NCBI GenBank assembly: GCA_965200865.1
Contig: CBDAVG010000002.1
Coordinates: 1,097,838 to 1,161,837 of the forward strand
Direction: 5' to 3'
DNA: 64,000 nt
Origin: an uncultured candidatus Porisulfidus sp.
Lineage (GTDB): Bacteria > Pseudomonadota > Gammaproteobacteria > Poriferisulfidales > Oxydemutatoraceae
The notes beneath the pieces are model-generated. The model worked only from the letters and a program-made list of their open reading frames with translations. It was not told the origin of the DNA and made no database searches. This document shows positions 7,081-7,616 of the stretch, one piece after another. A program made the translations under genes and the position numbers. Each line of letters opens with the position of its first letter. Positions within the stretch are counted from its first letter, which is position 1.

Positions 7081-7374
7081 TTAATTTTTAGGCAGATTCA
7101 CATAAGTGATTGACCCAAAGATAAACGTCAAAAGCAATGCCGCCGTTGCCCAATTATTTGGCGACAGTAGCAGATTGCCCTCTAGAGCTTCTACAATTTT
7201 CGAGTTATCTGCCAAATAGCTTTTAACTTTCTCTGTCAGTTCACTCGCCTCGTTGCATTCAAACATCATATCAGGTTCTCCGTTGGCAGCATTGCTATAA
7301 CATATCACTTTGAATCGATTATGAAGTTCTAATGACCCACCATCAATAGTTACATTACTATCTAGTAGTTCCAT
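7081..7374 (-). CDS. Small (97 aa) protein with a C-terminal transmembrane segment, encoded behind leader module copy 3. The real start is the ATG at 7374; the longer six-frame ORF includes translated leader.
   Basis: RBS AAGGAG 7 nt upstream of the 7374 ATG; hydrophobic C-terminus ATAALLLTFIFGSITYV. Confidence 0.55.
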   Translation of the reverse strand: MELLDSNVTIDGGSLELHNRFKVICYSNAANGEPDMMFECNEASELTEKVKSYLADNSKIVEALEGNLLLSPNNWATAALLLTFIFGSITYVNLPKN

Positions 7375-7616
7375 AACAATCTCCTTTACAGTTGATCCGC
7401 AAAAGAGAAATTTCCCCTCAGGGAAATTTCCCCTGCAGGTTAATAGAAAAATGTACAAACACCTGAAAACAGGCATGTTTGCTACTTGTTAGAAATTACG
7501 AAGCATAGCCTCGCTAAATCAGATAAGCGGTTCGATAACCGCTCGTTGGAAAATCGATCATTAACTGATCATTAATTGAATTATTTCAATGCTACTATAG
7601 ATTGTAGTCGTGTCAA
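7375..7616 (-). promoter_or_regulatory. Leader module copy 3 (diverged). Sigma70 promoter (TTGACA at 7616-7611, 16-nt spacer, TAGCAT at 7594-7589 on the minus strand) plus a homologous structured leader with GGGGAAATTTCCC repeats.
   Basis: The reverse complement aligns with copies 1 and 2 over the palindrome and RBS region; promoter hexamers read directly. Confidence 0.45.

Follow-up and report, generated by a model that had tools for sequence, protein, structure and literature searches.

At what level is a small accessory gene controlled when the promoter and long leader in front of it recur at other places in the same mobile element? The question is raised by positions 7081–7616 of the window analysed here, a stretch of 64,000 nucleotides (nt) from an uncultured candidatus Porisulfidus sp. 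whose first part belongs to an integrative and conjugative element (ICE). A preliminary description of this region, made from the letters alone, had proposed a promoter–leader module driving a small membrane protein. The promoter is indeed present; the conserved part of the leader, by contrast, is better explained as an RNA element gating translation than as a promoter module alone, and its core probably constitutes a two-state cis-regulatory translational switch common to accessory genes of the ICE.

A third module copy precedes a 97-residue orphan protein

The unit comprises the following features, all read on the reverse strand:
7372–7616, reverse strand: module copy 3 (type II), a near-consensus sigma-70 promoter with a ~215-nt leader of six hairpins and a 97-codon open reading frame (ORF)
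7589–7616, reverse strand: sigma-70-type promoter of copy 3, with −35 TTGACA at 7616–7611, a 16-nt spacer and −10 TAGCAT at 7594–7589
7453–7570, reverse strand: leader hairpins P1 (7570–7556), P2 (7544–7525), P3 (7520–7492, core 7514–7498) and P4 (7485–7453) of copy 3
7081–7374, reverse strand: ORF of 97 residues, an orphan protein with a C-terminal hydrophobic helix (residues 76–94)
6971–7014, reverse strand: intrinsic-terminator-like hairpin GGAGAGAGAAUU...AGGUUCUCUCUC followed by UUUUUUA, closing the one-gene unit of copy 3

Copy 3 can be aligned end to end, from the −35 hexamer to the ATG, with positions 207–441 and 931–1170 on the forward strand (copies 1 and 2), and a module profile searched with nhmmer matches exactly three places in the 64-kb window (E 1e-63 to 1e-67) with nothing else significant, which bears out the third copy on the opposite strand that had been proposed. 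Over its full length, copy 3 has an identity of 0.68 with copy 1 and 0.66 with copy 2, rising to 0.72–0.73 across the 3′ half, where about 70% had been estimated. The best-conserved block is G+C-rich, so the similarity is not limited to low-complexity A/T stretches. All features listed previously are found on the reverse strand in the given order, and only the 7-nt distance between the Shine–Dalgarno (SD) sequence and the start codon needs correction: AAGGAG lies at 7386–7381 and the ATG at 7374, leaving a spacer of 6 nt in copy 3 (7 nt in copies 1 and 2).

In a consensus scan of positions 1–8000, three of the first four promoter-like matches listed, each scoring 10/12, correspond to the promoters of copies 1–3, and alignment shows that the copy 3 promoter is kept in orthologous copies of two related ICE fragments (L004 848–875 and L006 7770–7797). 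Transcription would start near 7583. The leader then runs through hairpins P1–P4, which are joined by A/U-rich linkers; the hairpin at 7544–7525 reads GCGGTTATCGAACCGC, the leader hairpin also being written GCGGUUAUCGAACCGC. The conserved 3′ block at 7433–7405 reads GGGGAAATTTCCCTGAGGGGAAATTTCTC, and the block between the leader hairpin and AAGGAG reads GGGGAAAUUUCCCUGAGGGGAAAUUUCUC. Folding of the copy 3 RNA yields −70.5 kcal/mol (z −5.5) for the sense strand versus −53.4 kcal/mol for the antisense strand, a difference of 17 kcal/mol in favour of the sense RNA.

The protein encoded behind the leader carries a single hydrophobic stretch at residues 76–94 (Kyte–Doolittle 1.65 over 19 residues), three residues from the C-terminus, and this C-terminal hydrophobic helix is the best-conserved part of the protein alignment. 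The earlier view of a small, tail-anchored membrane protein therefore holds for the size and the hydrophobic tail, and the anchor itself is plausible. The protein belongs to no Pfam, NCBIfam or PHROG family, has three homologues, and appears as one cluster among 1.84 billion representatives; its AlphaFold model reaches a predicted local distance difference test score (pLDDT) of 68 and has no fold match in the PDB.

Module copies fall into three types

Related ICE fragments were reached through the 97-residue protein and the RepA-like protein; these are L004, L006 (both metagenomic) and L007. Together with the window they provide 13 module copies, seven full and six shorter, which divide into three types that are mutually 62–68% identical:
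Type I (−10 TACTAT): window copies 1 and 2, and the radC copies of L004 and L007
Type II (−10 TAGCAT): window copy 3, L004 848–1089 and L006 7770–8008
Type III (extended −10 TGnTAAGAT or TGnTATGAT): window 168–24 (reverse strand), L007 9049–9107, L004 5073–5135 and L007 11218–11279

The other copies in the window are:
207–441, forward strand: module copy 1 (type I), with promoter at 207–234, leader, and P5–P6 at 374–441; 91.6 bits with the covariance model; drives a 139-residue ORF at 442–861
931–1170, forward strand: module copy 2 (type I), with promoter at 931–958, leader, and P5–P6 at 1103–1170; 95.6 bits with the covariance model
24–168, reverse strand: module copy 4 (type III), with extended −10 TGgTAAGAT at 166–158, a short leader and a diverged P5–P6 at 83–24

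Copy 2 drives a RadC-family gene (1171–1767; PF04002, 7.7e-44), and a radC-family gene also stands behind copies in L004 and L007; the remaining copies precede orphan genes. Three modules had been counted in 7.6 kb, and all three are real, but the count was low: at least four modules of three types are present, copy 4 having been missed. Its P5–P6 portion was found by the covariance model R1 (19 bits, E about 1e-3), which was trained on types I and II only, so that copy 4 was absent from the training set, and which recovered all four type III copies. Copies 4 and 1 point away from each other, their promoters being ~40 bp apart; the copy 4 gene starts with the ATG at 23–21 (MSKLTLN...) and continues beyond the window edge, and an orthologue of copy 4 lies at L007 9049–9107.

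Type III leaders contain a hairpin whose loop, GAGA(C/U)C, mimics the SD GGAGA(C/U), together with a second anti-SD, GUGGUCU(U/C), able to pair with either. Specifically, the leader of copy 4 has the hairpin GCACU..AGUGC with the SD-mimicking loop GAGACC and the second anti-SD GUGGUCUU. This combination of SD-mimic loop and second anti-SD would add a further regulatory layer in type III.

Copy 3 is 75–76% identical to its orthologues in L004 and L006 versus 66–68% to its neighbours in the window, and since it is closer to the former it represents an old, maintained and distinct module type. The term "diverged copy" is thus apt for a copy of the module and misleading if it implies descent from copies 1 or 2 within this element. 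Maintenance, as opposed to fresh duplication, is upheld by the type II orthologues in L004 and L006 and by the compensatory stem changes described below.

The gene driven by the type II module in L004 and L006 has 413 codons and is followed by a promoterless 3′ block and the 97-residue gene; these promoterless P5–P6 blocks before the internal gene lie at L004 2466–2531 and L006 9388–9457. The 413-residue gene is absent from the window, and comparison of window positions 7372–7450 with L004 1014–2531 and L006 7934–9457 places the switch in similarity inside the 3′ block, ~10–20 nt before the ATG. A join at this position fits recombination between two copies of the block, and gene cassettes seem to be joined by recombination at the repeated block.

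The leader is conserved as a folded RNA

Each of the seven full leaders, folded alone, yields the same six hairpins, P1–P6. In their alignment, 93% of cells pair, versus 38–51% when the partners are slid by 1–3 columns, and 16 pairs are changed on both sides versus 0–4 in the slid controls; none of 500 shuffles attained the observed values for four of five pairing measures. These compensatory changes sit in P1–P4, where 15 of 27 pairs have changed on both sides (RNAalifold and pair counts), while the sequences of P5 and P6 hardly vary among type I and type II copies. P1–P4 are accordingly described, from this pattern of substitution, as maintained for their predicted structure and not for their sequence.

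Searches of Rfam 15 returned no matching family, the radC and STAXI motifs, which occur in the same genomic context, included; the STAXI motif (RF01728) gave no covariance-model match, and no tandem pseudoknot units occur in the folds. A conserved leader peptide was considered and rejected, as upstream AUGs are not conserved and stand in different frames across copies 1–3.

The 3′ block can adopt two mutually exclusive folds

The last ~70 nt of the leader are almost invariant and have two possible folds, termed state A and state B, which in copy 3 consist of the following elements:
7414–7439, reverse strand: P5 hairpin of state A, CCUGC-A-GGGGAAAUUUCCCU-GAGGGG, whose 5′ arm doubles as an "anti-anti-SD"
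7380–7408, reverse strand: P6 of state A, in which the anti-SD UCUCUUUU (7408–7401) pairs with the SD region AAAGGAGA; the loop holds the conserved GCGG (7400–7397)
7397–7438, reverse strand: state B, a single 18-bp hairpin, CUGCAGGGGAAAUUUCCC / GGGAAAUUUCUCU..UGCGG, which sequesters the anti-SD, leaves the SD unpaired and excludes P5 and P6

State A is the most stable fold and combines the G+C-rich hairpin P5 with helix P6, in which the anti-SD UCUCCUUU pairs with AAAGGAGA. The predicted pairing probability of the SD is 0.97–1.0 in 8 of 10 copies, with values of 0.52–0.56 in L4C and 0.80–0.94 in L6B, and helix 6 has 100% of its cells paired in seven copies. State B instead pairs the anti-SD and the GCGG that follows it with the 5′ arm of P5 (CYGCAGGGGAA), and also AUUUCCCC with GGGGAAAU. 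This pairing explains the invariance of UUUGCGG, which is unpaired in the P6 loop. When the SD is forced open, the same long hairpin (14–18 bp) is formed in nine of 10 copies, 1.3–8.6 kcal/mol above state A; the difference is 3.8 kcal/mol in copy 3, and in L4C state B is itself the minimum-free-energy (MFE) fold.

The competitor fold is not a by-product of state A. When the base pairs of P5 are permuted so that state A is kept, the open state loses 6–8 kcal/mol of stability in copies w1, w2, w3, L6A and L6B and ~4 kcal/mol in L7B, a diverged copy of type III, and none of 400 permutations reached the native open-state value in any of these six copies. The sequences of type III are very different, for example CCUUCGGGGAUACCC/GGGUAUCUCUUAAGG and CUGCUAGGGACUUCCC/GGGAGGUCUCCGGCAG, yet both folds are still kept. 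Across the types this takes the form of a three-way covariation, in which the outer 5′ strand (CCGC, CUGC, CUGCU or CCUUC) co-varies both with the strand that it pairs with in state A and with the one that it pairs with in state B (GCGG, GGCAG or AAGG). In addition, RNAalifold run on a plain MAFFT alignment of the pre-SD segment from all three types returns state B. This fold contains 2–4 G·U pairs in each copy, and in nine of 11 copies the sense strand forms it with greater stability than the antisense strand. What the computation shows directly is thus that the module is repeated, that its strands co-vary and that the ability to form both folds is conserved.

Transcript length decides which fold is predicted to prevail. 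Cut before the SD, all 13 copies fold to state B; complete, they all fold to state A except L4C, in which B stays the minimum. A nascent-length scan refines this picture: in four of five copies, state B is the MFE fold from ~14 nt before the SD, when the anti-SD and GCGG are out, to 2–17 nt past it.

A putative two-state gate on translation initiation

The region is one of at least four promoter–leader–gene–terminator cassettes at the ParA-proximal end of the ICE. In the arrangement proposed here, its strong sigma-70 promoter, whose spacer contains no conserved operator, would produce an mRNA with a structured leader of ~215 nt, the final ~70 nt of which would serve as a two-state gate on translation initiation. 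In state A, formation of P5 would let the anti-SD pair with the SD, closing the ribosome site and repressing the gene; in state B, the long hairpin would capture the anti-SD, freeing the SD and permitting translation. From the predicted folds we infer that RNA is produced from the module, that translation is repressed in state A and permitted in state B, and how one state might give way to the other. The same gate before at least seven different small genes in the ICE lineage would allow joint switching, and shared control of several accessory genes is the natural reading of this reuse. The coordinated regulon proposed earlier is an inference, as would be its response to DNA damage or conjugation.

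The preferred trigger is kinetic: fresh transcripts would be open (state B), and older ones would relax to the closed state A. It is preferred because state B is the most stable nascent fold until the SD emerges. Alternatively, the balance might be moved by a trans-acting factor encoded in the ICE beyond the window, either an RNA-binding protein or a small RNA (sRNA) complementary to GGGGAAAUUCUCCUUUGCGG. A more specific version, which we consider unlikely, casts the 70-nt P5–P6 unit as a portable kinetic timer that would confine translation to nascent transcripts and give a burst of establishment genes in a new host, while also serving as a recombination joint.

Several points weigh against the two-state gate. 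Support for it is wholly computational, and only four or five instances of the ICE are present in the public collections searched, belonging to few close clades and therefore offering few independent compensatory events. Within types I and II there is almost no variation in P5 and P6, support for which comes from the four type III copies and the permutation control, and gene conversion between copies could account for part of the sequence conservation of P5–P6. At equilibrium, state A is favoured by 2–10 kcal/mol and predicted SD pairing is flat from 15 to 42 °C, so that an equilibrium switch would need an additional factor; the available sequence yielded no candidate for one, neither an RNA-binding protein nor a complementary sRNA. 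Finally, the nascent-length scan gives no preference for state B during synthesis in L4A.

Two familiar modes of control were also considered. An equilibrium RNA thermometer is rejected by predicted SD pairing that is unchanged from 15 to 42 °C. With respect to CsrA-type control, the GGA triplets sit in stems and not in loops, and no csrA-like gene occurs in the available sequence.

Alternative explanations

The modules might be no more than one good promoter and 5′ untranslated region (UTR), spread by duplication or recombination and giving constitutive expression only, with the structure merely stabilising the mRNA. Their position at cassette boundaries agrees with this, as does the 413-residue gene of the relatives that is missing from the window, the join within the repeat indicating that the repeats recombine. 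As a full account it is nevertheless quite improbable: compensatory changes have preserved six hairpins in three types that are 62–68% identical, the competitor fold is lost from the pair-permuted controls, and a helix that buries the SD, accompanied by a conserved competitor, would be costly for plain expression.

An operator acting in DNA would place the signal in the conserved G+C-rich block, with an ICE-encoded transcription factor binding the palindrome GGGGAAATTTCCCC (also given as GGGGAAAUUUCCCC) and the direct repeat GGGGAAAT and so blocking or activating transcription of all cassettes. Both elements are conserved in sequence, a 16-bp period is reported by the tandem-repeat finder, and plasmid regulons with repeated operators are known, among them KorA/KorB of RK2 and ArdK/StbA of R388. 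The block, however, lies ~170–190 bp downstream of the promoter and abuts the SD, and it is also present without any promoter before internal genes. The spacing of the repeat varies (16, 17 or 20 nt) and the palindrome tolerates a GAAA insertion or GUAUU replacement at its centre while base-pairing is preserved; a variable centre points to a hairpin and speaks against a site for a dimeric protein. Moreover, G·U pairs are used on the sense strand only, and type III keeps neither the palindrome sequence nor the repeat, yet retains both RNA folds, which together make an operator very improbable.

We regard as equally improbable a transcription attenuator, in which the hairpin AAAUUUCCCC-GNG-GGGGAAAUU and the U-rich CUCCUUU would terminate transcription unless P5 forms first, a leader RNA of ~175 nt perhaps being released as an sRNA. 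A scan does flag the hairpin as terminator-like in copies 1, 2 and 3 (6-bp core stem, tail ATTCTCCTTT), and it is mutually exclusive with P5. Against this, the stem is short with an A/U-rich base, the U-tract is interrupted by C residues and is missing in type III copies, and P5 comes first during synthesis, which would make read-through the default; termination would have no need of a complementarity to the SD that is perfectly conserved in the "U-tract" (helix 6, 100% paired).

Frpo is the single-strand promoter of the F plasmid. It is extremely unlikely that the modules are single-stranded DNA (ssDNA) elements of the conjugative leading region, that is, Frpo/ssi-like promoters or priming sites used on the transferred strand before copying: their neighbours near the ParA end of the ICE are indeed establishment-type genes (RadC, methyltransferases, DndC-like), Frpo-type elements are common before such genes (PMC11541004), and the hairpins would form in ssDNA too (z −5.6 and −2.5 for 361-nt stretches around copies 3 and 1), but in these DNA folds the −35/−10 hexamers lie outside any long stem, copies 1 and 2 are on the forward strand and copies 3 and 4 on the reverse strand when only one strand is transferred (the origin of transfer, oriT, was not located), no module match exists among 72,556 plasmids beyond radC coding sequence, and the anti-SD/SD logic is meaningful in RNA only.

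Genomic context and distribution of the module

Positions 1 to ~15300 are one end of the ICE, which is inserted beside tRNA-Ser(UGA) (15306–15395, reverse strand), with the start of ParA 60 nt away and the chromosomal genes pdxA, surA and lptD next after the ICE end. Two backbone genes define this part:
14409–15245: ParA, ICE backbone
11605–12642: TIGR03756 ICE protein, 236.6 bits versus a cutoff of 188

The ICE part of the window also encodes a ParB-like protein, a RepA-like protein, a DUF5131 and DndC-like pair and a 986-residue methyltransferase-like protein; a TIGR03764 match remains below its cutoff. The signature backbone proteins and the tRNA insertion of the PFGI-1/ICEclc/ICEHin1056 group are thus present, with the integrase and the type IV secretion system lying beyond the window. 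Each module-driven gene is followed by a strong terminator-like hairpin of its own, at 6971–7014 (reverse), 892–909 (forward) and 1772–1801 (forward), which makes the units monocistronic cassettes. The related island in L006 adjoins a different tRNA of 74 nt (L006 106–179), so the lineage uses more than one tRNA target.

Several neighbouring features deserve description. Just upstream of the RepA-like gene (9887–11140), a 23-bp unit, ACCTTTTCTGTACCCTCCCTGCG, is repeated 12.7 times at 11150–11441 and resembles an iteron array; the 157-residue ORF spanning this array (11128–11601) is probably not a gene. At 7959–9863 (reverse strand), a homologue of the DndC-like sulfurtransferase (TIGR03183, 301 bits, just above cutoff) adjoins the DUF5131 protein, and the two may form a DNA-modification or anti-restriction pair; in L006, a C5 DNA methyltransferase replaces the DndC-like gene. 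The 986-residue protein at 3947–6907 (forward strand) has only faint N6-methylase and Eco57I-type matches, no adjacent restriction gene and no PHROG family. At 1806–3630 (reverse strand), a secreted-looking protein of the endonuclease/exonuclease/phosphatase family (295 residues) overlaps by 11 nt with a 315-residue protein that has a lipoprotein-like N-terminus and belongs to no known family, and both genes are convergent on the radC cassette.

The module lineage is rare in public collections. Exact-pattern scans for the core motif gave only chance matches in GTDB representative genomes (three) and JGI metagenomes (one) and none in IMG/VR. Neither the 276-nt module 3 nor the 87-nt P5–P6 block of copy 2 has a blastn match in 72,556 plasmid records, F-like plasmids included, and plasmid matches to the 1.6-kb stretch with modules 1 and 2 are confined to the radC coding sequence; the module likewise has no blastn match in E. 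coli genomes and only chance 26-nt matches in phages. It is not carried by the RadC-based loci from IMG/VR and plasmids (L009–L020), nor by the more distant ICE fragment L025 (72–896, 3100–4420), whose RadC is 61% identical. In L025, a different repeated intergenic motif, AATGTAAAC-N7-TACATT, stands where the module would be, and a gene with an RNase III domain adjoins the ParB-like gene.

Comparison with known systems

The timing of establishment and anti-defence gene expression in conjugative elements is an active question, and the known answers are transcriptional, namely single-strand promoters and repeated operators. If the two-state gate is real, a reusable RNA gate on translation, common to many ICE cassettes, would add a post-transcriptional layer to this control. 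It would also offer a compact natural two-state RNA of ~70 nt with three-way covariation, amenable to mutagenesis and probing. Its practical weight is limited by the rarity of the lineage in public data and by the orphan nature of the controlled proteins.

In mechanism, the closest parallels are leaders with competing folds. Alternative mRNA structures were reportedly described for phage lambda cIII by Altuvia and co-workers in 1989, and kinetic gating is said to have been found by Poot and co-workers in 1997 for the MS2 maturation gene and by Franch and Gerdes in 1997 for hok mRNA. The open fold of MS2 and hok is short-lived, being confined to a period that follows synthesis or processing of the RNA. 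As in these systems, two mutually exclusive folds of the translation-initiation region are predicted to set SD accessibility, and the nascent-length scan suggests the same kinetics here; the difference is that the sequences are unrelated and that the module gate forms a portable 70-nt unit before many genes of one element. Riboswitch expression platforms share the anti-SD/anti-anti-SD logic and the three-way covariation. Unlike riboswitches, the module has no aptamer-like multi-helix junction, P1–P4 are simple serial hairpins, internal copies carry the gate without P1–P4, and no ligand is implied.

Other comparisons concern context rather than mechanism. Frpo/ssi single-strand promoters (Masai and Arai 1997; PMC11541004) are repeated structured elements with −35/−10 boxes before establishment or anti-defence genes of conjugative elements. 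The module differs from them in that its boxes are not in a stem, its copies occupy both strands and, radC coding sequence aside, it has no similarity to plasmid sequences. In proteobacterial mobile DNA, the 5′ UTRs of genes for RadC, integrases, methyltransferases and anti-restriction proteins can harbour the radC RNA motif (RF01754; Weinberg et al. 2010, PMC2864571), a structured RNA regarded as a candidate cis-regulator. Its likeness to the module is one of genomic context only, as copy 2 stands in front of a radC-family gene: the radC motif covariance model gives no match at gathering score in the window, L004, L006 or L007 and none at E ≤ 10 on positions 1–8000, 920–1200 and 7350–7640, and the module, in contrast, is a series of six hairpins with an SD gate at its end. 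The resemblance to the Pedo-repair motif (Weinberg et al. 2010, Additional file 1) is one of description only: this structured leader, too, occurs in several copies but very few genomes, lies in 5′ UTRs of operons that include radC or restriction-related genes, and has possible alternative stems.

After the radC and Pedo-repair motifs, the module is the third unrelated structured leader before radC-family genes of mobile DNA, which suggests that such genes are commonly under RNA-level control. Collectively, these comparisons indicate that the module is most likely a gate of a known kind, an SD-sequestering leader with alternative folds, and that its novelty lies in being absent from Rfam, portable and reused before many genes.

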